Of a stretch of 64,000 nucleotides of DNA, positions 1 to 52,418 are shown one piece after another. The notes below the pieces were generated by a model. That model did not search any database. It saw only the letters and a program-made list of their open reading frames with translations, and was not told where the DNA came from. The position numbers were made by a program, and so were the translations under genes. How positions within the stretch are numbered: position 1 is the stretch's first letter; each line of letters starts with the position of its first letter. This stretch comes from a virus. Location of the stretch: the IMG/VR virus record IMGVR_UViG_3300045988_127961; one strand, 5' to 3'.

Positions 1-3000
1 CCACTTTAAAGAATACTGCTCGTTGGCAAATTTCTTCAAGTATTTTACATGGTTTTATTGGATCAGTTCAATCTGCGTATTATTATGCTTAGGACTTAAA
101 TGAATCTTTGAATAATATTCGTATTGTTACAGGTCAAAATACTGAATAGATGGCTAAATTTGCTAAATAGGCAAATGCTACAGCCAAGGCTTTAAGTACT
201 ACCACTACAAAATATACTGATGCTGCTTTGATTTATTATCAATAGGGTTTATCTGATGAAGAAGTAAAAGAACGTACTGATATTACAGTAAAAATGGCTA
301 ATGTAGCTCGTGAAAGTGCTGAAACGGTTTCAGATCAAATGACCGCGGTTTGGAATAATTTCTATAATGGAAGTTAGTCATTAGAGCATTATGCCGATGC
401 GATGGTACGTCTAGGTGCTGATACTGCTTCTAGCACTGATGAAATTGCTGGTGGTCTTGAAAAATTCGCAGCTGTTGCTAATACAATTGGTTTAAGTTTT
501 GATAATGCGGCTGCTGCCTTAGCTACTATTACTGCTACTACTCGTCAAAGTGAAGATGTTGTAGGTACTGCTTTAAAAACTATCTTTGCTCGTATTCAAG
601 GTTTAAAGCTTGGGGAAACTCTTGAAGATGGTACTACATTAAATCAATATTCATAGGCTCTCGAAAAAGTTGGAATTAATATTAAAGATTCTAACGGTAA
701 GTTAAAAGATATGGATAATATCATTGAAGAAATGGGTAATAAATGGGGAGCTATTGATAAAGACTAGCAAGTAGCTTTGGCTCAATAGGTTGCTGGTGTT
801 CGTCAATATACTCAATTGATTGCTTTAATGGATAATTTTAATTATTATAAAGAGAATCTTGAAAGAGCATAGAGCGCAGATGGCTCTCTTCAAAAACAAG
901 CAGATATTTATGCTGAGTCTTGGGAAGCTGCCGGAAAAAGAGTTAAAGCAGCAATGGAAACTATATATTCTTCATTATTAAGTGATGAATTTTTTATTGA
1001 TTTGACTGATGGAGTAGGTAGCTTTCTTGAAATTTTAAATGGTGTAATAAAAAGTCTTGGTGGAGTAAAAGGTTTACTTTTAGGAATTACTTCTATTGTT
1101 TTAACTAAAATGCAACCATAGATTACTAAAGGTCTTAGCAATATTAAATATAATATTGATTAGATGACTGGTAAAGAAACACAAAGTGTAGCTAATACTA
1201 AAAAGACTGCGAATTAGATGTTAATAAATTCCGCAGATGTAAATTCTATTTACGGTAAAAATGCTAATAAAGCTTATCAAGAATAGGCAAATCTTTAGAA
1301 TGAGTATATTAGAATAGCTGATAAATTAACAGAAGTACAACAAAAAGAAGCTGCATCGTATTTAGATATTTAGAAAAATTTAATTAAGAATATTGAACTT
1401 AAATCTCAAGAATTAGAAATAAGTGAAAAAGAAGCTTATAAAACTACAAATAGAGCTAAAGGAGATATTTATTCTGGAGATTACACTAAAAATAAACTAA
1501 CTTCTTAGCAAAGATCAGGTATTGATTTATTAATGAATGATTTGGCTTAGTAGAGTAAAGCTTATGCCGAAGTAGAAAGTTACCAATATAATTTAGGAAC
1601 TTAGGGTGAAACAACGGTAAAAGACCTTGAAATATTAAGAAAAAAAATTAATGAATGTAGTATGTCTGCGGAAAAGTTTGGGCTTGCTTATGGAAAAGAA
1701 GGAGCTAAAGCATTTTTAGAATTTGAAAATGCTTTAAAAAATAATAATATTGACAAAGTAGATTAGTCATTAGAAAAATTAAATAATTTAATGACTTAGA
1801 GTGAACCAGTATATAGAGATACTAAAAATATTATTTTAGATTTTGTTACTGCTTTAGGAGCTACCGAAGATCAATATAATGATTTAAGTAAGGTTTTAGA
1901 TAATATTGTTAGTAAAAATCAAAAAGTTGGAGAAACTGAATAGGATTTATCTAATAAACATGTTATTTTAAAGAATTTTACTAAACAAGTAGAAGAAGTA
2001 TTTAAAGAACTATCAGTACAAACAATGTCTGCTTCTCAATCATTTGTTGCTTTTGCTGGAGCTTTATCTTCTGTTGGTATGTTAGTATCATAGATTTAGG
2101 GTATTATAGAAACTTTTAATGATGATACGGTAGACACAAAAGATAAAATTATCAGTATAACAACTTCTTTAGGATTTATGATTCCTATGCTATCTTCTGT
2201 GATTAATAGCTTAAAAGATTCTCGTTTCTTTTTAGGGTCTTTAGGAGCTTAGATGGGAGTAGCTGCTAATGGGGCAGGATTATTAGGTAAGTCATTGGGA
2301 GAGGTTAGTATAGCAGGAACTTAGACGGCCATTTCATTAGGATCAGTTTTAACTGGACTTTCTGGATTATTAGCAGCTATTGTAATAGTAGGAACTGTTA
2401 TTCTTGCCATAAAAGGTGTTATTGATTATGTAAATTAGGCTTCAATTGCTTTAGAAGACGCTACCAAAAACGCAGAAAAAGCTAGTGATGCTTTCAATGA
2501 AGTAAAAACATCTTTTGATTCATTAAAAAATGATATTGAAGATTATTCTTCTATGAAAGATTCACTAGAAACTTTAACAGAAGGCACAAAAGAATGGAAT
2601 GAAGCTTTACAAAAAAATAACGAACAAGTTTCTTAGATGCTTAAAAATTATCCTGAATTAGCTAAATATTTTGATAAAAAATCTAATGGATAGTATTATT
2701 TTACTGATACTGAAGCTGTTGAAAAAATTTATGACAATAAAGTAAAAAATGCTTAGAACGCTGTTAATATGGCAAATGTAGCTAAAGCTAATGCTAACTA
2801 TAATAATGAGAGGATTGCTTCTTTAAGAGATGCTAGTTCTTTTGATACTTATAATAGTTCTGATTTTATGAAAAAAATTGGAAATAGCACAATAGCTGGT
2901 TCTGGTATGGCGGCTATTTTAATGGGGATATTAGGCGGTAGCGCTGCTGGAATAGGAGCTGGTCCAATTGGAGCTTTAGCTGGTGGATTAGCAGGATTAA

Positions 3001-6000
3001 CTGCTGCAATTATAGATAATCAAAAATCGGCAGAAGAAAGTCAACAGGCTATGATTCTTTTACAAGAAGCCTATGAAGAATCTGGCACCTTAGTTTTTTC
3101 TTCTCAAGAAGAATTCACAAAAGCTCTTAAAGATGTAAAAAATGATACTATAGAAGCATTATGGAAAAATGTTGATACTATTTAGGAATAGATTGTAGCT
3201 TTAGATAATAATTCTACGTAGCTAAAGAATTTATTAGAAATGGCTTCTAGTGGATATAATGAAAATAATGAAGATTATAATAAATTAACTGATGAAGAAA
3301 AAGCTCTTGCTGATGCTGTTATTGCTGAAAGAGCTTCAAAAGATATTACTAATTAGACTCAAACATATGTAAATGCTCGTTCTACTGGCACTATGCTATT
3401 ACAAGGAAACGAATAGCAACAAAAATAGTATTTACAAGCAGTTTATGGAGCTGATAGTGAAAATTATCAAATTAAACAAGGTTGGTTCGGAAAATATACC
3501 ATCCAAAAGAGAGATTTGAATGGAACTTGGACTGATTTTAAATCTGGAAAAGCTAATGAACTAGGAGCCGATTATGGTACTTATCTTCTAAATCAATTTA
3601 CATCTGAAGATTCTGATACAATTAATAAATTAACTCAAGTTGGGGATCAAATTAAATCTAAAGATAGTAAAGAAGATTTAAGTGAAAAAATTTTTTAGTT
3701 ACAAAAAGATATTATAGATGGTGTTGGGGTATCTCTAGCTGGTTTTGATGAAGATGTTGTTGAAAATCTTAAAAATAATTTAGGTTAGATCCCTGACGAG
3801 TATAAAAAATAGATAGAAGCAGCTATAGAAGATTATGAAAAGAATTCTTCTGATTATGCAATACAACGATTTGCTGAAAAAGCTGAAGCTGCTAAAGGCA
3901 ATGCAGAAGGTGTTGGAGGGGTTTTAACATCTTTAAATAATGGTGATGATTTATCAACTGAACAAATTGCTTTTTTAGATACACTTAAATAGAAATATAC
4001 TGAATTAAATGATATTAAAGATCAAGGCAGTCATGAATATTTAGCTTTATTGAGAGAAATTTAGGAGCAAGAAGAAACTAATTATTTATAGGCTTTAGAA
4101 GATTCTAGAGATAGTTTATTTAAACAAGCATCTGATTTATCAAAAGAAATAAAAAATAAAGAAAGTGCTTTAAACGATCCAACTCTAAATAAAGATAAAA
4201 AAACTGAATTAGAAATTGAATTACAAGCAAAAACAGATAAATTCAATGAAGTAATGGATAAAATCCAAAACTCCGATTATTCAATTCAAGTTGCTATAGA
4301 TGCTGATTTAAAGTCTGATGTCGATTAGGCTTTTGGATTAGCTGATGAATTTGAAAAATTATAGTCTTATGTGAGTGATGGTTTGACAATTAGCATAGAA
4401 AAAGCATAGTAGATTATTGCTGATGGATATGGAGCAATGCTTACAAATGCTGAAGAGACTGCTGACGGCTAGATTAAATTAAATCAATAGGCAAGAGATT
4501 CTTTTATTGATGATAAACAAGCAGAATTGAATGCTGATAAAGATGCTAAAATTAAATAGTTAGAACTTGAGCGTCAAATGCTTGTTACTAAATAGCAAGC
4601 AACTGAAAAAGCTATTGAAATTTTATAGGGTGGATTAGAAGCAACTACTGCCACTGCTAAAGCAGAAGCTTTAGTTAATGCTGGTTTAGAATCTTAGAAA
4701 GCAGACCAAGCTGTATAGACTGAAGAAATAAAATCAAATGCTGCTGATGCCGGTAATGAAGAAATAGCTTAGGATACTGAAAATTTAGTTAATGATTTAG
4801 GTTTAATGTATTCAGATAATGCTAAAAATCTTGGTAATTCATTTGATGATGCTACAACAAATGCTGAAACATCAGCATCAGCGCAAGTTTCAGCTTGGAA
4901 CTAGGCCCAAAGAGCTGTTGTTGAATACGGTAAAAAAGTAAGAGAAGCCCCAAAAACCACCGGAGATATTTCTTATAATGAAATTAAATTTACGGGGTCT
5001 GGTAAGAAAAGTAAAACAACTGAAAGCACTCCTACTAGCAGTAATTATGCTTATTCTGAATCTACTATTGGAGATACAGTTGATTCAATACTTCGTGAAG
5101 CCGGGAAGCATGAAAGTGGGACAGCATTCTTAGATGAAGCTATTGAAAAGGCTATCGCACAACAATAGTAGAAGCTTGCCGCAGTAAATGCTCAGATTGG
5201 TAGTATTGATGCAGGAATTGCTGCTTTAAAAAGTACTGATGTTTATTTAGATAGATTACAAAAGAATTTAGGAAAAACTTCTAATGAAGTTAAAAAATTA
5301 GCAGAACGTTATCATGAAATAACCCGTGAAATTCAATATCAAGAAAAGCTTTTAGATAAACTATCTAAAACTAAAGATAGAGTTTATGGCAAAGCTAGAA
5401 TTGATAATATCAATTAGGAAATTGAAGCTAATAAAAAATTAGTTGACTTACAAACTAAACTTTATGATTTAGTATTAGCTAATGTTCTTGTAGACTAGCA
5501 AGAAGTTTAGAAACAATTTGGTGGATAGGCAATTTTTAATAAAGAAACATTAGAAATTGATAATTATACTGCTTTATATAATAAAGCTACTACTGATAAA
5601 TAGAGAGAAGCTTTAGAACAATATGAAGAGACTTTAGATAAATTAAAAGAACAAGAGGAAGTTTTAATTGATTTAAAGAATACTATTCAAGATTTACATT
5701 ATGAAAAATTAACTTATGAAGTTGAAGTAAAAATTCAATTAGATGAAAATGATACTAAGAAATTAGAATATTATTTTGATAAATTAAGTGATAATATTTA
5801 TAAAGCAGTTGAAGCTCTTGGATATTTACAAGGTCAATTCGATCCAGTAATTAGTCAATTAGGAACTTATGAAAACTTCTATGGCTAGTTAAACAATGCT
5901 TATTCTAATGGAGAAATTTCTCAAGAAAATTATATCGAAGGTTTACAAGATGTGTATGATAACACATTAGATAATTTAAATGCTTTGTAGGATTTAGACA

Positions 6001-8078
6001 AAGAAATGCTTGAATACTATGGTAATACTATAGATTTAGCAAATGATGAATTATCTAAATATACAGATCATATGGAGCATTTGACTAGTGTATTAGATCA
6101 TTATCGTTCTATTATTACTTTGTTAGGTAAGGATAAAGATTATGATAAAGTTTTATCAGTTTTGAATGGAACTGCTTAGACTAAGAAAAATAATTTTGAT
6201 GCTTCTAAACAATGGTATGAAAGCTTGAAGCATGAGCGCGATGCAGCGGCCGCTGCTTTAGCCAGTTCAACTGATGAGGCTGAACGCGAAGTGCTTCAAA
6301 AGAATTATGATGCTATATTAGCTGCATTTGATGAAGCGGAAGAGGATATGCTTTCTAAAGCTGAAGAATATGGCGAAGCATTAAAAGAAATTCTTACCAC
6401 AAAGATGGAACAAGCTGCGGATGAAATGAATAAGCAATTAAGTACTACCAAAGTGAGTATTAATGGTAATAACTTTAATATTTCTGGTTGGGATGCTTTA
6501 AATGATGCTTTGGATAGAATGTCTTCTTATCAAGATGAATATTTAACAAAAACTAATTAGATTTATGAAATGAATAAATTGCTTAATAATGTTAATTAGG
6601 CTATTGATAAGACAAATAATCAAGCAGCTAAAAATAGATACCAGCAATTTACTAAAGAGATTGAATAGCTAAAAGATAAAGATAAATTAAGTCAATTAGA
6701 ATTAGAAATTGCTTAGGCTAAATATAAAGTGCTTGAAGCACAAATCGCATTAGAAGAAGCTCAAAACGCAAAGTCTACAGTTAGATTGCAACGTGATAAT
6801 GAAGGTAATTTTGGTTATGTGTATACCGCAGACCAAGAGAAAGTAAATGACGCACAATAGGCTTTGGCGGATGCGGAAAATGATTTGTATAATATTCGTC
6901 TTAATGCGACAAACAAATATGGTCAACAAAAACTTCAATATGAGAAAGAGTTGGCTGAAAAGCTTGCAGAACTCGATTAGAAGGCCGCGGAAGATGCCGT
7001 TTACCGCGAGACTACATATCAGCAAGAACGCGCGCTAGTAATTCAACAATATACCGATTTAATTACTACTGCTGGAAATCTTTATGCAAAAGCGCAAGAA
7101 GAGGATAGCAGAGTCGTTCAAGACGCTTGGGTAAATTCTTTTGATATTATCAAAGATAATAGTAATAATTGGAAAGATACTATTACTGAAAACACTAATA
7201 TTATCAATGATACATTTAAAGAATGGCAAGACAGTATGGATGAAATTAGTAAAATTGTTGGTGATGATTTAAAAGATACTCAATAGAAAGTTAAAGATGT
7301 TACTGATGAAAGTAATAAACTTTATCAAGAAGTATCTAATAGAGTTATTCCTGCTCTTGAAAGCGAGTTAAGTTCTGTTCGTAGTGCTACTGAAGCTTGG
7401 GCACAACATCGTCAGCAATTACTTGATACTATTAGAGCTTATGAAGAGCTTTTAAACGCCATTCAAGCGACATTGCGTGCTTAGAGTGGATTCGGTAGCG
7501 ATAGTGGTGGAGATACTGACTGGGCGGCCATGATGGGCACTGTGGCTTATGGCTCCGCGCAATATAATCAATATAAAAGAAACCGCGAAGAAAAAATTGC
7601 TAATGGTGGTAGTATTAATGAAGATACTACGGCTCGAGTTGATGCATATTATAAATTGCTAAGTGAAGGAAAAATCTCTGGTAAACTTCCTAATGGTAAA
7701 TATAGTTTTACTTAGCTTACTGATTAGGAGTGGAGAGATTTAGTCGGATTTAGAAGTGGTGGTTACACTGGCACTTGGAATGATGACGGAAAATTAGCAT
7801 TCTTACATTAGAAAGAATTAGTTCTTAATGCTGATGACACGGAAAATATGTTAGCCTCTATCCAATTAGTTAGATAGATCGCAAAACAATTAGATTTCAA
7901 TAGTCAACAAATCTCCACTCTTTCTTCTTCTGGATTTACTGTTAGTTCTCAAGATGGAACATTAGAATAGAATGTTAAAATTGAAGCTAGTTTCCCGAAC
8001 GCGACTGATAGATACGAAATTCAAGAAGCATTTAATACATTAGTTAATGTAGCTTCTCAGTATGCCAATAGAAAATAA
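1..8078 (+). CDS. Tail tape measure protein, 5'-partial (more than 2690 codons in window). Read in frame 0 with dozens of in-frame TAG codons taken as sense. Stop is TAA at 8076-8078.
   Basis: Continuous frame-0 reading from nt 3 to 8075 contains only TAG as apparent stops (e.g. 90-92, 147-149, 168-170, 243-245, 375-377, 654-656). All ORF-track fragments (402, 2769, 3516, 6225, 7530) share frame 0. The TP901/TMP-like motif MVRLGADTASSTDEIAGGLEKFAAVANTIGLSFDNAAAALATITATTRQSEDVVGTALKTIFARIQG is present. There are Gly-rich hydrophobic segments (e.g. 2200-2420) and long coiled-coil Q/E/K-rich stretches. A rho-independent terminator follows. Confidence 0.85.
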
Positions 8079-22008: not shown

Positions 22009-25000
22009 ATGTCTAAGATACGTTTTCGTCCTGTATAGGGTCCAGAAGAAAAGATAAAAGCATATCCACAAACTGATGGATATTTTTATGTGGCAACAGA
22101 TACCGGACGAGTTTATTTAGATACAGCGACTGAGAATAAAATACCAATAGGTTCAAGTGGCGTTTAGGTAATTTATGGAACTGAAAAAGACGTCGGAATT
22201 GATTATGATGCGGATGAAAACCCAATCGGATATTCAATTCGTTTATCTAATTTATCAAGTTCTAATCCTCATGTAAATGATTTAATTTTAAATAGCGATG
22301 GAGCATTTTATCGTATTAAAGAATTTAAATTAAATGATGATAAAGAAGAAGTCGCAAGTTGTGAAAAATTAACTGTCGCCGGGGCGGGCGGTGGCGGAGA
22401 AGGAGACTCTGAACAAAAAGTTTTAGGAACTGTTTCTTTAACAAGAATTCCACCCGATAGTCCTGTTGATGTTTTGAATGAAGAAAATGTTAAAGTAAAG
22501 GTATTGGTTAAATGTAGAACTGTTGGAGGAGTTCCACAATCTTCTTCTGTGCAAGGAATTATAACTATAAGCGAAATTAAAAGTGCTACAGAAAAAGAAA
22601 TTTATTATACTTCTCCTCCTACTACTTATGAGCATAATATTCCGCAAGAAATTGATTTAACTAATATTTTAAGAAATTCATGTTCTAGTGAAATTAATTT
22701 TAGTATTTATTATAATCCTGATAAAGAAAATAATAGATTTTAGAAAAGCTCTGATACTATTAATATTAATAAACATCATCTTTCTTTTAGTTGGAAAGAA
22801 AGTAGTTTTAGTAATGATAGTCCAGTTGATAATGGACAAATATCTGTTAGTTGGTTAATGTCTGAAGATATTGCTAGATCTGTTGAAGTTTATTTTGATG
22901 ATTATTTAGTTTTAGATAGAACTTATAGTGATACTGATTCTTCTTCTGAAGATTCTTTTGTTATTACTCCTGATACAAATATATTAGGGACTGATAAAGT
23001 TTCTACTTTAAAAAATTATTTTACTCATGGTGAGCATATAATAAAGGCAAAGTTATATTTAATGAATAATTCTAAAAAAGGTACAGGAACAGATTTTATT
23101 TAGAAAGAAATCGTTATTCAAGAACCAGGCAATAAAATGCCTTTAATTTGGGTACAAGATTTTAAAACAGAATATTATACTTATGAGACAATAAGAATTC
23201 CTTTTAAAGTATTAGATCCAAATAATAATGGAGCTTTTATAACTCTTTATAAAAATGGTGTTCAAGTAGGAACTAGAGAATTAGATAGTTCGCAAGTTAG
23301 AGAATGGCAATATTGGGAAATTACTAATTTAACTGTAGATGATAGTTCTTATTATACTATTAAAGTTGGTACTGATCCTTATTCTTATTCTCGTAATTTT
23401 AATTTTACAATTTTAATTGACCCTTTAAGAGATATGAAGTTAGTAAAAAAAGATAATTTAAAGGTTAATTTTATAGCTACTGGTCGTTCTAATTCAGAAG
23501 GAAAATTAGGTCGTGAAACTTATTTAATTAATAATAATAAATATGTAGAATTTAAAAATTTTAACTGGTATAATAATGGTTGGGTTTTTGATGAAAATAA
23601 TACGACTTGTTTACGAGTAAGCAATGGTGCTGAAGTATCTATCCCAGTCGGAAAAATGGCTTTTAAAGATGGATCATCATCTGCTACTATTGAGATTCAA
23701 TTTAAAATAAAGAATCCTCAAAATTATGCTAAAGTTATAACTAAATATACTAGATATAAAGTAAGTAAAGATAATTGGGAAGATAATGATGCTTGGGATA
23801 AATTTAAAGCCCAAAATAAATATCTTAATTATGATGAGTTTTTAACTAAAGAATATTTACCGACAACTAATTATACTTATGATGATTTAGAATATAATAA
23901 AATAGAACAAGATTTTAATTTAAAGAATTTAGTTTGTGCATATGGTAAATTAGGGAATTCTGTTTCTCCTGGTATTTATTTTAGTCCATAGGATGCTGTA
24001 TTTACAGCTAACGGGGCTCAAGAAACAGTTTCAGTTGATTTTATTGAAAATGAAATGCTAAATCTTTCATTTGTTTATACTAAAAAGAAAAGTGATATAG
24101 AAGGCGGAAATTCTAAATTATTAGAAATTTTTATGAATGGCGTTTTAACTAGTGTTGTACGTTGTAGTAGTGATGTTTGGAATATTGATTCTGATTTCAT
24201 TAAATTTATGTCTAATACTTGTGATATTGATATTTATAGTATTAGAGTTTATGATACAGATTTAACTATTCCTGAAATAGTCCAAAATTACGCTTTTGAT
24301 AAGAGAAGTATAAAACAGTGGGACCAAAAAGATCTTTATGAAAACAATACGGTATTAAAAGATGATGTATTTTCTTATACTAAAATGAAAAAGTATAATG
24401 ATAATCATCCGACTGAACCTTTAATGCCCTATATTATTCTAAGGACTACTAAAAATAATAAAAATAATACGGATAATAGATTACCTTATTCTAAAGCAAA
24501 AGGAAGCTAGGAAGGAACTTTAGAATTTGTTAACACTGCTTTAGACGCTGCTTACAATAGTGGTGAATTAGAAAAAGTTGCTATAAAAGAAGGATGGAAA
24601 CCTGTAATCGAAAAAAATGAAGAAACATAGGAAGAAGTAGTAAAATATACTGCGGTATAGAATTATTATATGCATCATTGTCCTAGTTTTATAACTGTTC
24701 TTAATGGATGTACTTTCCAAGTTCAAGGTACTTCTTCACAATTTTATCCTCGTCGTAATTATAAAGCTAAATGCAAAGAATCAATGCTTTTAAATAGAGG
24801 CCCATTTGCTGAAGACTATAAAAAAGCAGGAGACTAGTATAATGAAGATATAACTAAACATCCTTGTTATTTAGAGTGGTTTTATATGGATAATAAGACA
24901 GTCGGTACTACTAAATTTACTTTAAAAATAGATTTTATGGAATCTTCTGGAGATTATAATAGAGGATTTGCTAATTTAGTTAACGAGATTTATTCTAAAC

Positions 25001-28000
25001 ATCCAATAGAAGACTATAAAGATTCTTTTGATAATTATAATTTATATGGAAATTTAGAAGATTATCGCACTTCGGTAAAAGGATTCCCCGTTTTAGCTTT
25101 CCATTATATGTCCAACGATGATAATACTTACTCTAAGGAAAATAGTAATAACTGTATTTTTATTGGCAAATATAATATGTTATTAGATAAAGGCTCAGAT
25201 GAATGTTTTGGATTTAAGCCAAATAAAAAGATTTTACAAAATCAAATTACGGGCAACCCTAAAGTAAGAGATATGGCAGAATGTTGGGAATTTTAGAACA
25301 ATTCAAGAACTTTTTGCTCTTTCCGCGACCCTTGGAATCGTTATAAATTATCATTTAGAAATCCTAATATGGTAATCCCTCCAGATGGAGATAATCCTGA
25401 ATTAGTTAAAGGCGCTCCAAAAGTCGTTGATTCTTTTGAACCAAGATATAATCCAAATGATGATTTAATTGCTGATAATTTATTTAGTTTAAAAGAGTGG
25501 CTTGATCCAGATGGGACATAGACTAAGATTGTTGGGGAAGAATTAAAAAATGTAGCCCCAGATAGACTTACTAAAAAAGAAATAGTTGATGAAATTACTG
25601 GTATAAAATCTATTAAATGGATTATAAAGAACCCAGACGGAGAAGAAATAGAATTTAATGTTGCTAATGATACAAGTAAACAAGAATTACTCTTAGCTTT
25701 AATGTCTAACTGGGAAGACGCAGTTAGTTGGGTGTGGAGTACTTGTTTAGATTGCGATATTGAATTTGATGATGGATAGAAATTAAAAATTCCATCTATG
25801 GGCATTTATACTAAAGTTGATGGATTAGCTGAAGCTATATATGTTCCTAATGTCTATTATGTTGAAGATGGAGTTAATGAAAATGGAAAAATTATTTATA
25901 AATTAGCTTCTGAAGAATATAACTCTGAAACAAGATATTATAAGTAGATTAATGAAAATAATAGTTTAAAGTATGTAAGCATAAAACTTACAAATAATTC
26001 AGATAAAGTATATAAAGCAAATATTTATTATCTTTTAACTGATAGTAAAAATGAAATTTATGTATTAAGTTCTGATAAATTTAATTCTTCTTTAGATTAT
26101 TATTCTTTTAATAAAAATGAAGAAGGTATTGAGGAAAGATGGAAATTACCTAATCCAGTAACCTATGGCTCTATTACTTATACTAAAGATAGTAAAGAAT
26201 ACCGTCAAGCTAAATTTAAAAATGAATTAAGTAATTTCTTTGATATTGAATATTTAGCTTCTTACCTTTTAATGACAGAAATTTTTGAATGTTATGATTC
26301 TCGTGGAAAAAATGCAATGTTTGCTTCTTGGGGACCTCAAAAAGGTAATATTCAAAAATCTACTGGCAAACAACATTATATTTGGTATCCTATCTTTTAT
26401 GATATTGATACTCAATTAGGTATTAATAATACTGGTATCCCATCTTTTGAATACTACATTGATGCTACTGAAGAAGGAAGTTTTTCAACTAATGATAGTG
26501 TTCTTTGGAATAATTTTTACACTTTCTTTAGAAGTAAGATGGTGGATAAATATAAGCAATTAATGGGAACTCAAAATAATTCTTATAGTCCAAATGATTC
26601 AAGAGTAAATAAAATTTTTACCAAAGGAGCAGGAAGCGGGGCTAAAAAAAGTGATATTGTAGATAAATGGTATCGTACTGATCCATCGGTATTTCTTGAT
26701 AGCTATGCCGTTCTAGGAGACAGACCAATTGTTGCCTTAAGTTTAGACGAAGAATTTAAGTATATTATTCCAACAAACTCTAAAGCCAAAGATATGCCAG
26801 TGTTTGGTCGTTTGACTGATGGAGGTTCATATGAGGTTGAAGATGATAAATATTTTTATGCTTTGCAAGGAGATAGAAATCTTTATCGCGCGCAATTTTT
26901 AGCAAATCGTCTTAATTACATCGACTCTTGGTTGACCGTTGGCACTTATGCTAGAAATGGTGGAGGAAGCTATATTAGAAGTCGTATTTCTGCAAACAAT
27001 CCTAAGAATACGTCAGATAAATGGATTGAAGGCACTAATACTCAAAATATGGAAGGATTAATTACAAATTCTCAGTATTGGAAAAATGATGTTGAATTCG
27101 AAGAGAAAAATCATATGTTCGATGGTGAGTATTGGATTAACATGGAGCCCGCGCGTAATGCTTATGTTACTATTGGCACAGATGGAGAGAATTTTCCTTC
27201 AAAGAAATATAATGGTTTAGAACCAGTTAAATATGTAGCTCCTGATATTAAAAAAGGAATTATAAGTAGCGGTAATTATAAAGAACAATTATATTATATT
27301 TATGGAATGGATCAAATGAAATCTCTCGGTGATTTAAGTAAATTATATTTCCAAGAGTTCGCGGCTGAAGGAAAAATGGAGCGTTTAACTGATTTATTAT
27401 TAGGATATGATGGAAAAGATGAAAGTGGTAATGAATATTTTAATAATGATGTAAATGACTGGTCCTTCTCAAAAGGCGGAATGCCTTTACTTAAAGAAAT
27501 GAATCTTTGTAATATTAACTTTAAAAAAGACTAGGGGGCATTAGATTTAACTAAAAGTGAAAAACTTGAAAACTTTAGAAATACTAAATCTAATATCCCG
27601 AGAGTTAATTTTGCTCCTGGAGTAGCTTTAAATACTTTATATTTAACCAATCGAACAAATTATTTAAGTTTAATAGAAGCTAATTTATTAACGAAATTAA
27701 TAACTAACTATATATATCCTGAAAAAAATCCAATTACTGGAAAACTTGAGGTCTCAGATGAAAATCGTGGTTTATATATTCAAGGTCTTACTGATGCTGA
27801 AGAAGGAAAAGAAAAAACCGAGATAAGAACTTTTGATATTCGAGGCGGTAATTTAGGTTATAATAGTTATGAATTGTTACGCAAATATATTTCAGCTAGT
27901 AAAAATAGTAAATTAGATTTATCTAATTGTATTATTAATTTAAATAATGTTTAGTGGAGTCCATATAGACTTCTGACTGACACTAAAACAACTCTTGATC

Positions 28001-29754
28001 CAGAAAGAAAATCTTATTATAGAGATAATGGACATTTTTAGTTGGTAGCTATTCCAAAAGATTAGGTTAATAAAATAACAAAATCTGATATTAAAAATAA
28101 TTAGATTTATTATTTAGATACAATAAATGGAGACAATAATAATCATAGTATAATAACTGATTATAATTTATTAATTGATATTTATAATAATTATAGGGGT
28201 CTTAATACTAATAAGCCAGAAATATCTGGTGTTATGTATATAAAAAATAATAATTAGATTGATGAATCTATTATCTAGAATGAGTTATAGGATAAATACC
28301 CTGATTTAATAATTTTTGTAGAAAATGTTAAACAAGAATGTTCTGCCAAGTTTATTTTAGAAAAAGAAGATATTGATGGAGTATTAATTTAGGAGGTTCT
28401 AAAAACTTAGAAATTACCCTTATCTAGCAGTAAATTCTTTGATGATCCAACAAATTCTTCTAGCGAAACTTATATTTCTTTTGGTAGCTTACAAGAAAAA
28501 ATGCCAACTTATGATTTTAAAGGTTGGGAAGATGATACGGGAGAATTAGTAATTGCTGTTGGAAAAAATGTAAATGAAGAAGACGTTGTTTTAAAAAGCG
28601 ATTGGAATTCTTTGTCTTTACAATCTAATAAAATGGATTATATTTTTAAAGCGAGATTTGAGCGCAAATCTTATACGATCACTTTCGTTAATGGTGACCG
28701 CGTTATTAATGATTCAACTGTAAAGAAAGTATTTAATTATGGTGAAAGAATTACTGTTCCAGAAGAATTTTATTATTTTAATAATACAGAAGTATCTGAT
28801 TTACCAGAAGGCGAAGACTCATTAGAATGGACTTGGAGATAGACGGGATGGGCGGATAAAGATGGAGTTAAAATTGATTTAACTAAACAATTAGCCTATG
28901 CTGACCGCGAATTCTACGCTGTTGGAGAGCCGATTAGTGTTTATGATAATATTTTAACTAATGATTCTACTCATAAATATTATGATATTATAAATTCTGA
29001 TGGAGAGTTATCATTTGTAATGACTGACTTAGCTAAGAATTTAAAAGGTAAAGTTACTTTACCTACAACTTATAACGGTTAGCCGATTACAAGAATTAAA
29101 TATAGCCAAGTTAATCCATCAGCAGCAGTTGGTATTCAAGTAAATCCTAATATCACTGCGATATTTTTTGCTCCAAAAGATAGCAATAAAATTTCTGTAA
29201 TAGATGATTATGCTTTTATTTTAGATAGTGGGTTAGAATATTTCCAATTTAGTGATTGTTTAAAGAAAATTGGTACTAAAGCATTTTATCAATGTCCTTT
29301 AAGTCGTAATAACATAATTCCTTATTCTTCTTCTACTGAAGGTTTGACTTTTGGAGCTCAAGCATTTTATCAAAGTAAGATGGGTTCTTATTCTCCTTAT
29401 AATTTAATTATAGAGGGATGCAAAGACGGTATTCTTAATTTTGATATAAATGCATTTTCTGGTCAGACAATTTTAAATATGTCTGGTAATTAGTTTAAAG
29501 GTTATACTGGCGCTATTCAAGTATAGATTGGTACTAATAAACACCCAATTAAACAAATTACAGCAGATAGCTCTGGCAATATTTTTACTCCTCGTCAAAC
29601 TGGTATGCCTACAGTGGCTAATGGATACACAGGTCGTTTTAGATATTATTATGTTGCTAGTTATGGTGAAAGTATTAAAAATACTTTACACAATATTTAT
29701 GAAGCAATGATATCTAATAGAGCGAATTTTGAAGAAGAGCCTATTGTAAAGTGA
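22009..29754 (+). CDS. Giant tail fibre or host-recognition protein (2581 aa) with C-terminal BspA-type leucine-rich repeats. TAG-recoded.
   Basis: ATG after AAAGGAG. Frame-1 fragments 22474, 22858, 23137, 24055, 24886, 26272 and 28501 are all joined only by TAG. N-terminus RFRPVQGPEEKIKAYPQTDGYFYVATDTG is of the fibre N-terminal type. The C-terminal region (about 28950-29500) has repeats such as ISVIDDYAF...FSDCLKKIGTKAFYQCPL...LTFGAQAFYQS typical of BspA LRRs. TGA stop at 29752. Confidence 0.55.
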
Positions 29755-33505: not shown

Positions 33506-33916
33506 ATGGATCAAAATTTGATTAATCAATTATTCCAAGTATGTTTGATTCCTATGCTTGGCGCTTTAACTACTTTTATAGTTATTTGGATTAAAGCAAA
33601 AAGTGCGGAATTACAAAAGAAAACTAATAATGATATTTTAAATAAATATGTGCAAATGGCTACTGACACAATTACTAACTGTGTTATTGCCACTAATCAA
33701 ACTTATGTAAATTCTCTTAAAGAACAAGGTAAGTTTGATGAAGCTGCTCAAAAAGAAGCATTTTAGAGAACTTATCAAGCAGTATTGCTCATTTTAAGTG
33801 ATGACGCTAAAGAGTATTTGAATAATGCTTTTGGTGATTTAAATAAATATTTACAAGAGAAGATTGAGTCTACAGTAAATAATTATCGTACTCCAAGTAA
33901 TGATTTAAAGCAATAA
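33506..33916 (+). CDS. Holin, LL-H-like (136 aa). Single N-terminal transmembrane segment. One in-frame TAG.
   Basis: RBS AAAGGAG. TM helix LFQVCLIPMLGALTTFIVIWIKA followed by a charged or amphipathic tail. Located at the end of the structural module. Confidence 0.5.
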
Positions 33917-33920
33917 AAAT

Positions 33921-33962
33921 AAGGGAGACATTCTTAATTGAATGTCTCCCTTATTTTTTTTA
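33921..33962. terminator. Bidirectional rho-independent terminator
   Basis: AAGGGAGACATTC / GAATGTCTCCCTT, A-rich on the left and T-rich on the right. Separates the plus-strand holin from the minus-strand LytTR gene. Confidence 0.7.
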
Positions 33963-34685
33963 TCTAAATGGATTTTTCCATCGTCGATTAATTTCTTCAT
34001 AGCCTTTTTTAGGAAAGTATAAAACTTCACCATTTTTAAAAGTTAAATTATCTTTATTCATTATTTTAATTTGATTTAAATTAATAATTAAACTTGGCGG
34101 AATAAAGACAAAATCTGGATGATAAACTAAAGTTCCTATATAATTTTCAAAAGAAGTTTTTAAAGTTTTACTATTTAGAATTTCGTTCTCTAAATGACAA
34201 CACAAATTTCGTTTTTGAATATCAGCATATAATACTTTACCCAAATCAATTTTTACTTCTCCGTTAGGAGTGTCTAAATATTTATATTCACGTCTTTTTT
34301 CTTCTCTAACTTCATGTAAAATAGAAAAAATTTTTTCTTTATTAACAGGTTTTTTGACGAAGTTAAAGGCCTTTACTTCATAAGAAGCTACTCCATAATT
34401 TATTTGAGAGGAAACAAAAATTATTTTTCCAATATACCCATTTGTTTTTAAAGATGAGCTATTTCAATACCATCCATTTTTTTGAATGTAATTCCTAAAA
34501 AGATTGCATCATAATCAATATTGGAGTTAATTAATTTTTCAGGATCAGTAAATTTATATACATATCCTGGCAAATTAAATTCTTTAAAATACTGATTTAT
34601 TATTTCTTCTAATGAGTCATTTTGCTAATCGCTATTGTCGCAAACACCTACAATAAAAATTTTAATCACCTTCATTTTGTTTATT
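33960..34685 (-). pseudogene. LytTR-family (AgrA/ComE-like) response regulator, disrupted. The receiver-like N-terminus (ATG 34685) ends at TAA after IAHL in an A5 tract. The LytTR DNA-binding domain continues in the -1 frame.
   Basis: N-frame reads MKVIKIFIVGVCDNSD(Q)QNDSLEEIINQYFKEFNLPGYVYKFTDPEKLINSNIDYDAIFLGITFKKMDGIEIAHL then TAA. The other frame reads ...FVKKPVNKEKIFSILHEVREEKRREYKYLDTPNGEVKIDLGKVLYADIQKRNLCCHLENEILNSKTLKTSFENYIGTLVYHPDFVFIPPSLIINLNQIKIM..., which is a LytTR pattern. The canonical phospho-acceptor Asp is replaced (IFLGI instead of FLDI). Confidence 0.5.
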
Positions 34686-34759
34686 TTAGAAAAAATTTTT
34701 CTATCTCTATATTTTCTCTATATTATAATTATACAAAAATTTTTAAATATTGTAAAATA

Positions 34760-34835
34760 AAAAATTATAAAGTGTCAAATTTATTTAATTTTAAGTAAGT
34801 GAAATTTTTATTCAAAAAGTGTCAGTAATTATAAT
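34760..34835 (+). promoter_or_regulatory. Divergent AT-rich control region with two copies of AAGTGTCA (34770 and 34817) and a -10-like TATAAT
   Basis: Direct repeat AAAGTGTCAAATT / AAAGTGTCAGTAATT, 47 bp apart. TATAAT at 34830-34835. Lies between the LytTR gene and the downstream plus-strand cluster. Confidence 0.3.
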
Positions 34836-34918
34836 ATATTTACACAAAATAAAAGTCATATAATAATGAAAGGAAAAGATAAAACCTTTCATTATTATAT
34901 TTCTCCGGAGGTAATAAC

Positions 34919-35365
34919 ATGAATACTTATGGTTATCCATAGCAGTAGTATCCAATAGGTAATAATAGACCTATTTATGGAACAACTGCTACGCCTGTGA
35001 TTCAAAACAATACTACATAGCGAATTAGACCCGTTGCTTCTTTAGAAGAAGTTCGAGCTATGAATATAGATTTTGATGGTTCAGTTTTTTATTTTCCTGA
35101 CTATGCTAATCGTAGAATTTATACAAAACAAATAAATATGGATGGAACAGCTTCTATTAATATGTATGAATTAAAGGAAATCCCAAATTCTTCTTAGCCT
35201 AATAATGATTATATAACACGAGAAGAATTTAATACTACTTTAACTTCTATTAAAGAAGTATTTGCATAGATCATGGGATCTAATAACGCGGTTGCGCCGT
35301 CTTAGGAATCGGGTTAGCCAGCTCAATAGCAACCAGTAGAGAGCAAACCGCAGTTTAATTTTTAA
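34919..35365 (+). CDS. Gln-rich hypothetical protein (148 aa) with 8 in-frame TAGs
   Basis: RBS GGAGG. TAG codons flank CAG codons (CCA TAG CAG TAG TAT at 34937-34951) and occur in a PAQQQPV-type tail. Confidence 0.5.
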
Positions 35366-35377
35366 GGAGAGTTTTAA

Positions 35378-35626
35378 ATGACACAATCAATGAATCCAAT
35401 GCAAATTATTGCTATGATTAAAAACGGTCAAAATCCATAGCAATTAGTTTTATCTATGCTTGAAAATCAAATGGGCGGAACGCCAATGGGCAATAATTTA
35501 TTACAAATGGCACGGAACGGTCAATCCGATGACATTGAAAAATTTGCTCGTAATTTGTTTGAATCAAGAGGGTTAAATTTCGATAAAGAATTTAATAGTT
35601 TTAAGTCCCAAATGGGGTTTAAATAA
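35378..35626 (+). CDS. Small hypothetical protein (82 aa), one TAG
   Basis: RBS AAGGAG. TAA stop. Confidence 0.45.
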
Positions 35627-35652
35627 ATAAAATTATAGAAAGAGGTTTTGTT

Positions 35653-36534
35653 ATGTTTAATTACAATTATCCAATGAGCACGCCTAATTATTCATTATCT
35701 GATATTGCTGCGGCTTCTGGAAATGGCTATCGTAATAATGATGGCGGAATGTGGGGAGACGGAGCATGGTGGATTATTATCCTGTTCTTATTCTGCTTCA
35801 ATGGTTGGGGCGGTAATGGCTGGGGTAATAATGGTGCTAATGGTTCTGGTTTCCAAGGCACTACAACTCGAGAAGAAATCGGCTATGGTTTTAACATGAG
35901 CGATCTTAAATCTGGGGTTAATGGTTTAGCTTCTAGCCTTTGTAATGGTTTTAGTGGAGTAAACACTAATCTTTTAAGTGGTTTTGCTAATCTTGCTGAA
36001 ACTAATAATGCTAATACTCGCACTTTACAGAGTGATATCTGCAATATGGGTATGAATAATATGCAGAATACCTTTAGTATTACTCAGGCTATTAATGCTG
36101 ATACTGTAGCAAGTATGCAGAATACTAATAATTTAACTCAGCAATTAAGTAATATGGCAGCTACTAATGCTCAATGCTGCTGCGAAAATAAACAGTTAAT
36201 TCAATCTAGTTTTGCTGATCTTAATTATAATCTTGCTAGTATTGCTTGCCAGAATCGTCAGGCTACCGTTGATGGTGTTCGCGATATTATTGACAACAAT
36301 AATGCTAATATGCGTTCTATTCTTGACTTCCTTGTTCAAGATAAAATTGAGACTCTTACCAGTGAAAATAGCACTCTTAAAAATTAGATTTCTCAAAATC
36401 TTCAAAATGCTTATCTTATTGATCAGTTGTCTCCAAAAGCAACTCCTGCTTATATCGTTGCTAATCCTTATACTGGTGTTAGCTATACCAGTTATGGATG
36501 CGGTTATGGTTCAGGATGCGGTTGTAATTCCTGA
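35653..36534 (+). CDS. Asn/Gly-rich low-complexity membrane protein with Cys clusters (293 aa)
   Basis: RBS AAAGAGG. Hydrophobic segment WWIIILFLFCF. The region GWGGNGWGNNGANGSG, a CCC motif and a C-terminal YGCGYGSGCGCNS. One TAG. Confidence 0.5.
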
Positions 36535-36555
36535 TTGAAGAAAGAAGGTTAAATT

Positions 36556-36978
36556 ATGGAAATAACGGCTAATGCTTTACAATCAGTTGCTACTGGTTCT
36601 AATGTAGTATTCACTAACACAGCTGTTGCTGGAAACTGTTCCATAATGTATCGCGAGGGTAGCGGTTTAGTTACCCTCCGCGGTCTTACGAACGGTCAAC
36701 GCAGAGCTCGCTTCCGCATTTCATTTGGAGGTAATATAGGACTTCCAACTACTGGAACTGCGGGTGCTATTTCTTTGGCTATAGCTATTAATGGAGAGCC
36801 AGTTACTACTTCTACAATGATTTCCACTCCTACGGCTACTGGATAGTTTAATAATGTTTCACGTGCTTTATTCCTCGATGTGTTAGGCGGTTGTTGCACT
36901 CAAATCAGTATTGAAAACACGAGTTCATAGGCTATTGATGTTGAAAACGCCAGCTTAATTATCGAGAGAGTGGCATAA
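36556..36978 (+). CDS. BclA C-terminal-domain-like (C1q/TNF-like jelly-roll) protein (140 aa)
   Basis: The pattern ANALQSVATGSNVVFTNTAVAGNCSIMYREGSGLVTLRGL...RFRISFGGNIG...ISLAIAINGEPVTTSTMISTP...ASLIIERVA resembles exosporium BclA C-terminal domains. Two TAGs. Confidence 0.45.
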
Positions 36979-36991
36979 GGAGGTTTTTTAA

Positions 36992-37537
36992 ATGTGTGAT
37001 AAATTCCAAGAAATTAAAAAACAATTATTAACTCAAGTAGAAGGCCAAATGGCTCATTTAGAATGTGTTGATACAAAGGAAATGGGCGAAGTAATAGATA
37101 TGATAAAAGACCTTGAAGAGGCTATTTATTATTGCACTATTACTGAAGCTATGAATGATTTACCTGAAACCACACATTATTATACTGAAAAATATAAATC
37201 TCCTCATAAAAAAAGAATCTATAAACCTATGACATATGACTATGATTGGGAAGATTATGATTATGATGAGCACGAATATGAGATGCCAACAAGTGGGAAA
37301 TCTCATGAAACCCATGATAGCAGAGAAGGCCGTAGTGGCGTCCACAGAAAGATGTATATAGAAGCCAAAGAACTTCATAAAGATAAGAGTGTTTAGATAA
37401 AAGAGTTAGACAAGTATCTTCAAGAATTAAGTTCTGATATAGTAGAAATGATTGAAGATGCTTCTAATGATGAACGTTCTTATATGGAGAAGAAAATCTA
37501 GGCTTTAGCATCTAAAATTGGATCTATGAATGGTTAA
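36992..37537 (+). CDS. Hypothetical protein (181 aa). Acidic, with a Tyr/Asp-rich middle. Two TAGs.
   Basis: RBS AAGGAGG. Frame-2 ORF 36992 extends through TAGs at 37394 and 37498 to TAA at 37535. Confidence 0.45.
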
Positions 37538-37850
37538 TATTAATAATAGGAATTGGAGGATACTATTAGTATCTTCCAATCATCCTATGTTAATGCGACC
37601 TTCTGGAATATATACTTTAGGTTCTTGCGATGATCCTACTTCAACAATTTATATTAATGAAAATATTAGTAATAAAAAATTAAAAAAAGTATTAGCACAT
37701 GAATTAACTCATGCTGCTATTTTTAGCTATGATATTTCATTAAAACCAGAAGAAGAAGAATTGATTGCGGATTTAGTGGGAACTTATGGCGAAGAAATTA
37801 TAAATAATACTAATCTTTTATTTAAATAGATAAAAAAAATAAGGGAATGA
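37530..37850 (+). CDS. ImmA/IrrE-family zinc metallopeptidase-like protein (106 aa). HEXXH motif HELTH. The terminal TAG is read through to TGA at 37848.
   Basis: TIYINENISNKKLKKVLAHELTHAAIF matches the ImmA/IrrE core. The ORF ends with TAG at 37827, then IKKIRE and TGA inside the terminator. Confidence 0.5.
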
Positions 37851-51578: not shown

Positions 51579-52418
51579 TTAATTAGTAAAATAATTATAA
51601 GCAGTGGTCGCATTCTTTTGTCTTTGATTTAAAGAACTTGATCCACAACGCTCATAACATTTTGCAAAAGCTTTAGCAACTTCTTTTTCATCATTTAAAT
51701 TTAAAAAAGAATTAAAATTAAATCCTCTTTTATATGAAGAACCAAAAGTATTAAATTCATATCCAATAGTATTTATTAAGAATTCGCATTGTGTATCTAA
51801 ATCAGAATACCAAACACTTGAATATCCTTTACTCCATTGACAAATTCCATAATAATATTTATTAGAAGCAGTTGGCTGTAAAGATAAAGTATTACCGCCA
51901 CATTCTGCCATCATATTACCCAAAATACCGGCGCAAACCGCGTCATTCCATCCTTGGTCTTTCATATAAAGCCAAATTTCTGTCGCTACTGGATAAGTAG
52001 ATGATTTATCATTCCATTGAGAATTAATTTTATCTAAACGATTCTGATAAATTTCCAAATATCCATTAGCGGTTTCATATTCTTTTTTAGCAAATTCAAT
52101 AATAGGATGATTTTCATCATATCCTAATGCTCTCGTTGCTTCGGCTAAGTCATGAGCACTATTTACAATCTCTTGATACTCTTGGATTAGAGATTTGAGC
52201 TCTTTACGGTTAACTGTATTATTAATTTCTCTATCCATAGGCTCCATATCAATAGTTTCTTCTGGTAAAAAATTATATACAGTTGATGATTCAGAAGGGA
52301 TGTAAGCTTCCGAAAAAGTAGTGATTTCGCTATAATTTAGAGCAAGAGCTGATGTTTGTAAAATAAAAATTAATACAAAACAAATAATGCTTCCTGCTAA
52401 AATCTTATATCTTTTCAT
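51579..52418 (-). CDS. Secreted lysozyme-like peptidoglycan hydrolase (279 aa) with an N-terminal signal peptide or TM segment
   Basis: N-terminus MKRYKILAGSIICFVLIFILQTSALA. Motif GILGNMMAECGG...GICQWS resembles the ESGG-type lysozyme-like or phage tail lysozyme domains. No TAG. Confidence 0.5.
   Translation of the reverse strand: MKRYKILAGSIICFVLIFILQTSALALNYSEITTFSEAYIPSESSTVYNFLPEETIDMEPMDREINNTVNRKELKSLIQEYQEIVNSAHDLAEATRALGYDENHPIIEFAKKEYETANGYLEIYQNRLDKINSQWNDKSSTYPVATEIWLYMKDQGWNDAVCAGILGNMMAECGGNTLSLQPTASNKYYYGICQWSKGYSSVWYSDLDTQCEFLINTIGYEFNTFGSSYKRGFNFNSFLNLNDEKEVAKAFAKCYERCGSSSLNQRQKNATTAYNYFTN

Follow-up and report, generated by a model that had tools for sequence, protein, structure and literature searches.

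An AgrA/ComE-like protein of recoded gut phages, with a receiver lacking the phospho-acceptor aspartate, whose gene is broken by a one-base lesion in one viral contig

The IMG/VR virus record IMGVR_UViG_3300045988_127961, analysed here as one strand of 64,000 nucleotides (the window), carries on its minus strand, at 33960-34675, the locus of an AgrA/ComE-like protein in which a receiver (REC) domain is followed by a divergent LytTR fold. An earlier note on this DNA, made from the letters alone, had recognised a minus-strand coding region within the plus-strand late region and described an orphan regulator with a split receiver; the coding region and the domain type are borne out, but the gene as such has no split. 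The locus is, with high confidence, one conserved gene (hereafter the regulator), broken in the window by a single-base lesion. The pattern of substitution indicates purifying selection on the gene across its clade. Its product belongs to a phage family that derives its framework from LytTR response regulators, and in which dependence on the acceptor aspartate has been lost and the main DNA-contact motif changed. The intact protein may be a phosphorylation-independent transcription factor that binds ACACTT-type boxes and controls a divergent gene cluster, and perhaps itself, a proposal that is given roughly an even chance of being right.

In the window the regulator is presented as two open reading frames (ORFs), and the sequence as given would yield only a 75-aa fragment. 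The locus was compared with the contigs of two orthologs, P0001 and P0002, and with 18 IMG/VR contigs of the same phage group (up to 196 kb). At the break, all 22 comparable loci are in frame and read CATCTTTTAAGAAC or a close variant, the sequence at the frameshift site being CTTTTAAGAAC or CTCTTAAGAAC, whereas the window alone reads CATC-TTTAAAAAC, with AAA on the plus strand at 34450-34452. The missing base corresponds to position 224 of the coding sequence (residue 75/76) and lies within helix alpha-3 of the receiver (H69-78 in the structural model), and does not part the receiver from the DNA-binding domain as had been supposed. A change in the length of an A5 tract, the origin first proposed, was rejected, as the alignment puts the missing base in the T run. 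A G-to-A substitution (Arg to Lys) adjoins the deletion, which can equivalently be written as loss of the G of AAG with a T-to-A change, so that two changes are involved either way. The open frame is intact in 20 of 23 related loci, in P0001 (238 aa, 97% identical to the window protein, from a cluster of 574 member sequences) and in P0002 (249 aa, 69% identical, a single frame). Intact homologs of the kind that the earlier note had proposed to seek therefore exist, and the two halves are one ORF rather than unrelated ones. The Pfam Response_reg profile (PF00072) matches residues 41-120 of the frame-corrected window protein with 35.8 bits (cut-off 30.2); as this match crosses the break, the two halves make up one domain. 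The ratio of nonsynonymous to synonymous substitution rates (dN/dS) is 0.07-0.16 between the window copy, in its corrected frame, and its relatives and 0.07-0.22 across the clade, from which it follows that the gene is functional in the lineage and that the break, unless it is an error, must have arisen very recently. The earlier suggestion of a decaying gene thus applies at most to the window copy and fails for the clade.

An error of sequencing or assembly in a short homopolymer, the source phage having an intact 238-aa gene, is a serious possibility of somewhat less than even probability. The lesion affects one base, in a T3/A5 context, it is unique among 23 compared sequences, and the remainder of the gene carries no signs of decay, as judged from its low dN/dS. 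The Arg-to-Lys change directly beside the deletion speaks against an error, as do independent lesions in the same phage group. One contig (L023) has a +2 nt insertion in the regulator, along with a shortened homolog of 36992-37537, and two IMG/VR deletion variants (L018:5723-6013 and L024:5234-6180) have lost the 5' end of the regulator, the spacer and between two and five genes at the head of the divergent cluster; these lesions imply that real inactivation occurs in the phage population. Altogether 4 of 21 window-type contigs, L051 included, are disrupted in four different ways. A genuine recent pseudogene, belonging to an accessory module that some of the phages are losing, is accordingly given a probability approaching one half, helped by the two deletions that also remove the spacer and first cluster genes and by the 3' frame, which offers no ATG or GTG start for a complete LytTR domain (the first listed start is a TTG, giving 94 aa). 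Against this reading stand strong purifying selection throughout the clade, synteny kept to about 30% identity and the intact gene in 17 of the 21 close contigs. From the deletion variants, some phages of the population seem able to do without the whole module of regulator, spacer and cluster.

A programmed frameshift, or transcriptional slippage, yielding both a short receiver fragment and the full-length regulator has a negligible probability and was rejected. The frameshift site of the RF2 gene is CUU UGA C, at which a +1 shift takes place, and CUU UAA AAA C at the break recalls it superficially, beside a run of five A. Here, however, a -1 shift is needed and an RF2-type +1 shift would enter a closed frame; no X XXY YYZ heptamer occurs at the break, the A5 and T3 runs are too short for efficient polymerase slippage, and none of the 22 comparable relatives, all plainly in frame, has the arrangement, which is confined to the window.

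The assignment of the domains is supported by profiles and by structure prediction. Response_reg scores in the orthologs are 32.0 (P0001) and 35.9 bits (P0002). The Pfam LytTR profile (PF04397) aligns to residues 141-233 of the window protein over positions 4-97 of 98, with 18.2-19.5 bits (E 0.001-0.003) against a cut-off of 22.6; P0001 also falls below this cut-off (20.6 bits) and P0002 exceeds it (24.5 bits). A LytTR profile match, the complete absence of which would have refuted the earlier claim, thus exists, although below the cut-off in the window copy. An AlphaFold (AF2) model made from nine homologs (mean pLDDT 86.8) consists of a (beta-alpha)5 domain, with the five strand-helix units of a receiver fold within residues 7-130, followed by a beta-rich domain. 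In Foldseek searches the model matches receiver structures with TM 0.8-0.89 (for example 3nns, rmsd 1.7 A), and the best structural match in the Protein Data Bank (PDB) is full-length ComE (4cbv, E 2e-13), in which both domains are covered. The LytTR domain is matched by AgrA (4g4k, TM 0.78) and by a Bacillus cereus protein (3d6w, TM 0.71). Profile searches of PDB sequences are led, for the receiver, by LytR (6m8o), a protein deposited as MrkE (2qv0) and ComE (4ml3); for the LytTR half they gave no matches, receivers alone being recovered. The regulator also matches phrog_8810 at full length (E 3.5e-25; its residues 8-234 align with positions 2-241 of the 245 in the profile), hence the family is already catalogued among phage protein families.

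The claim that the receiver lacks its phospho-acceptor aspartate was upheld. The segment 'YDAIFLGITF' of the regulator aligns with 'YDIIFLDVNL' of 6m8o and 'DAIFLDINI' of 2qv0, placing Gly61 in the aspartate column, and the same glycine is found in P0001 and P0002. The acidic pair after beta-1 is reduced to one residue (C12-D13), and S89/S90 and K109-P110 are retained. Across a subfamily alignment of 45 members the residue at the acceptor position is D, G, E, S, N or another, and within one lineage genes about 98% identical (L042:5001-5693 compared with L043 and L052) differ here by GGT (Gly) versus GAT (Asp). This Asp/Gly polymorphism, the conservation of glycine and the many members without aspartate fit a function that has no need for the acceptor. 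With the aspartate absent, kinase input at the canonical site is impossible.

The LytTR domain is altered in its most conserved motif. The LytTR signature is FhRhHRS (PMC4227749), whereas the regulator has FVFIPPS, in which only F and S remain, and F.F..PS replaces the signature throughout the 45-member alignment. R156 and N199 are invariant in that alignment and a basic C-terminal RRW nearly so. A LytTR-like domain that has ceased to bind DNA, the protein acting instead through protein-protein contacts (with RNA polymerase or a host regulator) or in a non-regulatory role, is an unlikely alternative. The subfamily-wide FhFhPPS motif in place of FhRhHRS (PMC4227749), the borderline Pfam LytTR score and very degenerate receiver halves (20 of 45 match Response_reg) would be in keeping with such a protein; the confidently predicted LytTR fold, the invariant R156 and N199 with the nearly invariant RRW, and the conserved LytTR-like boxes that adjoin the gene favour a protein that still binds DNA.

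Searching the C-terminal 118 residues against 1.84 billion representative proteins returned 182 matches at E <= 0.001, mostly proteins of about 220-250 aa that match at their C-terminus and share the architecture. Among the 45 aligned relatives, 28 have a LytTR match at E <= 0.01. A scan of one genome per bacterial species revealed no prophage copies, the gene appearing only in two contigs within metagenome-assembled genomes (MAGs), neither of which is informative about a host, and tblastn of the phage collection found uncultured faecal phage contigs, a partial receiver match in two Clostridioides difficile phages and nothing else.

A feature missed in the first description is that TAG is read as glutamine in the window, and that the regulator has such a codon in frame at position 17. 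The codon-17 TAG is shared by all intact window-type orthologs, by an 85%-identical lineage (L019) and by the 69%-identical lineage (L002-L006), where two more TAGs occur in the gene; phage orthologs at the greater distance of 30-45% identity have one to six each, with the exception of L046. The conserved codon implies that synthesis of the full regulator needs TAG to be decoded as Gln. As one of six Gln codons in the gene is TAG, its use is on a par with the replication arm of the window (11%) rather than the late arm (37%). The codon was considered as proof of late expression, and that argument is weakened since TAG also makes up 11% of Gln codons in the replication arm. A bolder scheme, in which regulator synthesis would depend on TAG read-through and so report the switch of code, the protein then activating the cluster that contains a BclA-fold protein and coupling recoding to a late, optional module on the virion-surface/lysis side, is regarded as improbable.

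The setting of the gene is constant. In every lineage examined, to about 30% regulator identity, a holin gene is followed by the convergent regulator and a divergent six-gene cluster; in the window the full order is holin, bidirectional terminator, convergent regulator, a 243-bp spacer and the cluster. The terminator folds with energies of -27.9 and -28.7 kcal/mol (z -9.9 and -8.7). The earlier description of the regulator as facing a BclA-like and ImmA-like cluster is reasonable at the level of fold and motif. The gene at 36556-36978 (+) encodes a 140-aa jelly roll of the BclA-C-terminal/ExsF(BxpB)/TNF-C1q-like kind (AF2 pLDDT 86.6), the model of which matches 9h38 (E 1e-7; TM 0.70-0.75) and the family of which comprises 4,719 clusters, many of them more than 70% identical; the last gene, 37530-37850 (+), encodes 106 aa with an HExxH motif and weak metallopeptidase matches. 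PHROG and Pfam profiles gave no functional assignment for the cluster proteins, PDB sequence searches with two of them returned nothing useful, and PADLOC defence models matched neither regulator nor cluster. The first gene of the cluster, 34919-35365 (+), has eight TAGs in 148 codons, the densest locally, and its orthologs have up to 11. The jelly-roll gene and its upstream neighbour (35653-36534) also occur as a pair after the lysis genes of Butyrivibrio virus Ceridwen.

This setting bears on the earlier idea of a lysogeny or quorum-eavesdropping switch, in which the regulator would listen to a host kinase of the AgrC/ComD type. The fold is nearest to ComE, AgrA and LytR, and some Clostridioides difficile phages have agr genes or response regulators (PMC3901668). 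The acceptor aspartate through which such a kinase would signal is, however, missing, no peptide or integrase gene was found among the window ORFs examined or within 6 kb on either side in relatives, and no histidine kinase was found among the large window ORFs (judged non-exhaustively by Pfam and PHROG matches, within 64 kb of a genome of about 190 kb) or in the same flanks of relatives. The gene belongs to a syntenic module in the virion/lysis arm and has an in-frame TAG, and the bacterial genome scan described above recovered it only from the two MAG contigs, with no prophage copies. A quorum-sensing or lysis-lysogeny switch is therefore considered very unlikely.

Between the regulator and the cluster, the AT-rich control region reported earlier, with its TATAAT and two AAAGTGTCA copies 47 bp apart, was found as described. 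The spacer measures 243 bp (GC 16%), has TATAAT elements and carries the copies at 34769-34777 and 34816-34824 (47 bp from start to start). Two sigma-70-type promoters close to consensus face the regulator. The proximal regulator promoter is 83-86% identical to its counterparts in L002 and L019, compared with 69% for the whole spacer against L002. The AAAGTGTCA copy at 34769-34777, read as its reverse complement, supplies the -35 hexamer of the distal promoter-like element, TTGACA, so that one of the two repeats can be explained as a -35 box; the hexamer reads TTCTCA in L002. The second copy lies in box 1. Against L002, box 1 is 92% and box 2 89% identical. A CAC(N0-2)TTT element stands 72-106 nt from the cluster start codon in seven of eight lineages, whereas anything from 117 to 213 nt separates it from the regulator start, and on this ground the element of box 1 looks tied to the promoter region of the cluster. 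LytTR regulators recognise the consensus [TA][AC][CA]GTTN[AG][TG] in two imperfect direct repeats 12-13 bp apart, upstream of the -35 element (PMC5600425), and the minus-strand boxes ACACTTTTT, TCACTTACT and ACACTTTAT, which agree with it at 7-8 of nine positions, are candidate sites.

By count the repeat is only modestly unusual, and conservation is the stronger evidence. There are four copies of AAGTGTCA in the window against 1.5 expected, a number reached in 8 of 100 shuffles, and three CACTT copies in the spacer have a P of about 0.046. A promoter motif used throughout the phage was rejected, as AAGTGTCA, ACACTTTTT, CACTT-N13-19-CACTT and TATAATAATGRAAGG show no more than marginal enrichment in the rest of the window, if any. 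The plus-strand TATAAT at 34830-34835 was likewise rejected as the cluster promoter, its surroundings being 36% identical to L002. A hairpin just upstream of the ribosome-binding site (RBS) of the cluster folds with z -4.0 and -4.9 and is found at the same place, with different sequence, in divergent lineages; it may be a 5' untranslated region (UTR) structure, an attenuator or a minus-strand terminator.

If the proposal of a phosphorylation-independent transcription factor is right, the regulator of intact orthologs would be transcribed by the host RNA polymerase from the near-consensus sigma-70-type promoter, and its full-length translation would require the decoding of TAG as Gln. The unphosphorylated protein would then dimerise and serve as a transcription factor at the 243-bp divergent spacer. 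Its putative targets there are the ACACTT/TCACTT boxes, LytTR-like half-sites 20 bp apart, which lie upstream both of a weak plus-strand promoter and of the regulator's own promoters, and once bound the protein would regulate the neighbouring late cluster of six genes, and perhaps its own gene as well. The deletions in L018 and L024, in which the 5' end of the regulator, the spacer and the beginning of the cluster are lost jointly, are counted in favour of this proposal.

Several observations weigh against this proposal. The LytTR score of the window copy is below the Pfam threshold, and the equivalents in the regulator of R198, H200 and N201, which are among the DNA contacts of AgrA (PMC4227749), are F, P and P; as the most conserved LytTR motif is changed at DNA-contact positions, binding could be changed or lost. 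The putative link from the regulator to the cluster is drawn from their adjacency and conservation. The candidate boxes (34813-34824, 34794-34802 and 34767-34778) are spaced by 11 and 18 bp rather than the canonical 12-13 bp, and they read ACAnTT on the strand of the regulator, opposite to transcription of the cluster. A repeated 9-mer with at least three G/C in the 243-bp spacer has a P of about 0.008, chosen post hoc, and the spaced CACTT pair is not enriched in the window (1 against 0.5 expected). TAG density in the regulator is at the level of the replication arm, and TAG gating consequently says little about timing. Finally, disruption in 4 of 21 contigs means that the regulator is dispensable at least sometimes.

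Features of the regulator locus and its surroundings in the window (positions are those of the 64,000-nt stretch)
Feature	Position	Strand	Detail or basis
Regulator gene (REC + LytTR fold)	33960-34675	-	238 aa after restoring one T
Two ORFs of the broken regulator	34448-34675 (75-codon 5' ORF) and 33960-34451 (-1-frame remainder)	-	ORF calls
Frameshift site	34445-34453	-	Coding strand C-TTT-AAAAA-C; one T missing; makes TAA at 34448-34450
Gly61 at the phospho-acceptor Asp position	34493-34495	-	GGA codon; alignments
In-frame TAG (read as Gln), codon 17	34625-34627	-	Alignment of orthologs
Pro-Pro-Ser in place of His-Arg-Ser	34092-34100	-	CCG CCA AGT; alignments
Proximal regulator promoter, TTTACA-17-TATAAT	34728-34756	-	11 of 12 consensus positions; conserved in L002 and L019
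Distal promoter-like element, TTGACA-18-TACAAT	34749-34778	-	AAAGTGTCA copy at 34769-34777 (box 3), as reverse complement, supplies the -35 hexamer
Box 2, TCACTTACT	34794-34802	-	Starts 20 nt after box 1; conserved in L002 and L019
Box 1, CTGACACTTTTT	34813-34824	-	Second AAAGTGTCA copy (34816-34824); conservation across lineages
16-bp perfect hairpin	34858-34900	.	Just upstream of cluster RBS; left arm holds plus-strand TATAAT 34859-34864
Holin	33506-33916	+	phrog_13712, E 6.7e-38; convergent with regulator, adjacency kept across clade
Bidirectional intrinsic terminator, holin/regulator	33915-33958	.	19-bp stem, T runs on both sides
Divergent six-gene late cluster, putative target	34919-37850	+	TAG is 28% of Gln codons

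The window as a whole (GC 30%) has coherent ORFs only if TAG is a sense codon for Gln. In a comparison of open frames, coverage climbs sharply and ORFs of 2,582 and 2,691 codons emerge when TAG is opened, opening TGA brings no comparable gain, and opening TAA, the commonest stop in this AT-rich DNA, lengthens ORFs indiscriminately. Two giant late ORFs on the plus strand, 108-8078 (2,656 codons, 77 in-frame TAGs) and 22009-29754 (2,581 codons, 27 TAGs), are seen solely when TAG is recoded; an ortholog of the second has a weak LRR_5 match. Calling ORFs with the standard code fragments most late genes of the window. TAG accounts for 37% of the Gln codons of the late arm, 28% of those of the six-gene cluster and 11% of those of the replication arm, and a tRNA scan of the 64-kb window detected no tRNA and hence no suppressor tRNA. 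The plus-strand arm (108-37850) encodes very large virion/tail-type proteins and the holin, and the minus-strand arm (37885-64000) functions in replication and nucleotide metabolism, namely NrdD, a Pol III alpha-type polymerase, RecD-like and DnaB-like helicases, a RecJ-like nuclease, an AAA_24 ATPase and a dUTPase. No endolysin was found beside the holin; a Phage_lysozyme2 domain (E 2.7e-19) occurs instead in a protein of 279 aa, which also has a hydrophobic segment at its N-terminus and is encoded at 51579-52418 (-), in the replication arm and far from the holin.

The phages of this clade are large, low-GC gut phages that read TAG as Gln, with contigs reaching about 100-200 kb. The GGAGG-type RBS before 34919 and the gene pair shared with Butyrivibrio virus Ceridwen suggest a Firmicute host. 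A nucleotide search of the phage collection with the window gave short matches alone, to unannotated human-faecal contigs, and the paper on the recoded phage phAss-1 (PMC10607447) makes no mention of such a regulator. One contig of 163,874 bp (L051, CAMELE010000001.1), labelled as an 'uncultured Mollicutes' MAG, carries a 95%-identical regulator and resembles a genome of the phage group of the window; its label is probably a binning artefact and not an indication of the host.

For annotation, the window should be read with TAG as Gln, the two ORFs treated as one disrupted gene and the split as a one-base lesion. LytTR regulators and receivers without the aspartate are already known kinds, and the family is already a PHROG, phrog_8810, which covers the regulator at full length and is given no function there. 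No annotation found for phrog_8810 mentions the absent aspartate, the PPS motif, the TAG codon or the conserved synteny. The regulator is distinguished from these by the combination of a degenerate, aspartate-less receiver with a LytTR fold bearing a PPS signature, its synteny in recoded phages, the in-frame TAG and the fixed pairing with a BclA-fold cluster. Should the proposed function hold, this would be a phage-core transcription factor made from a response-regulator scaffold without phosphorylation and dedicated to one late cluster, in a widespread, uncultured group of recoded gut phages. It would offer a handle on the timing, in these large phages, of a module to which an exosporium-like BclA-fold protein belongs, and would add a LytTR variant with a changed DNA-contact motif.

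Among known systems, the regulator has in common with ComE of Streptococcus pneumoniae (4cbv), AgrA (4g4k) and LytR (6m8o) a two-domain architecture of about 240 aa and, in the window, candidate direct-repeat boxes near the family consensus and upstream of promoters. It differs from them in having Gly for Asp and FhFhPPS for FhRhHRS, in boxes spaced by 11 and 18 bp instead of the 12-13 bp of the family sites, in the lack of a nearby cognate kinase or peptide gene among the ORFs examined, and in its location within a virulent-looking recoded phage, beside a holin and with an in-frame TAG. Atypical response regulators without the aspartate form a phosphorylation-independent category, and the window protein resembles them in keeping the receiver fold, with Ser (S89/S90) and Lys-Pro (K109-P110), in the absence of a phosphorylatable Asp. 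To our knowledge, the characterised members of that category are cellular and have helix-turn-helix or winged-helix outputs, whereas the window protein pairs its aspartate-less receiver with a LytTR fold and is phage-borne. HdrR and BrsR of Streptococcus mutans are described as stand-alone LytTR proteins that work without phosphorylation, use direct repeats and regulate their own expression (PMC6193735); unlike the window regulator, they have no receiver and are paired with a membrane inhibitor gene.

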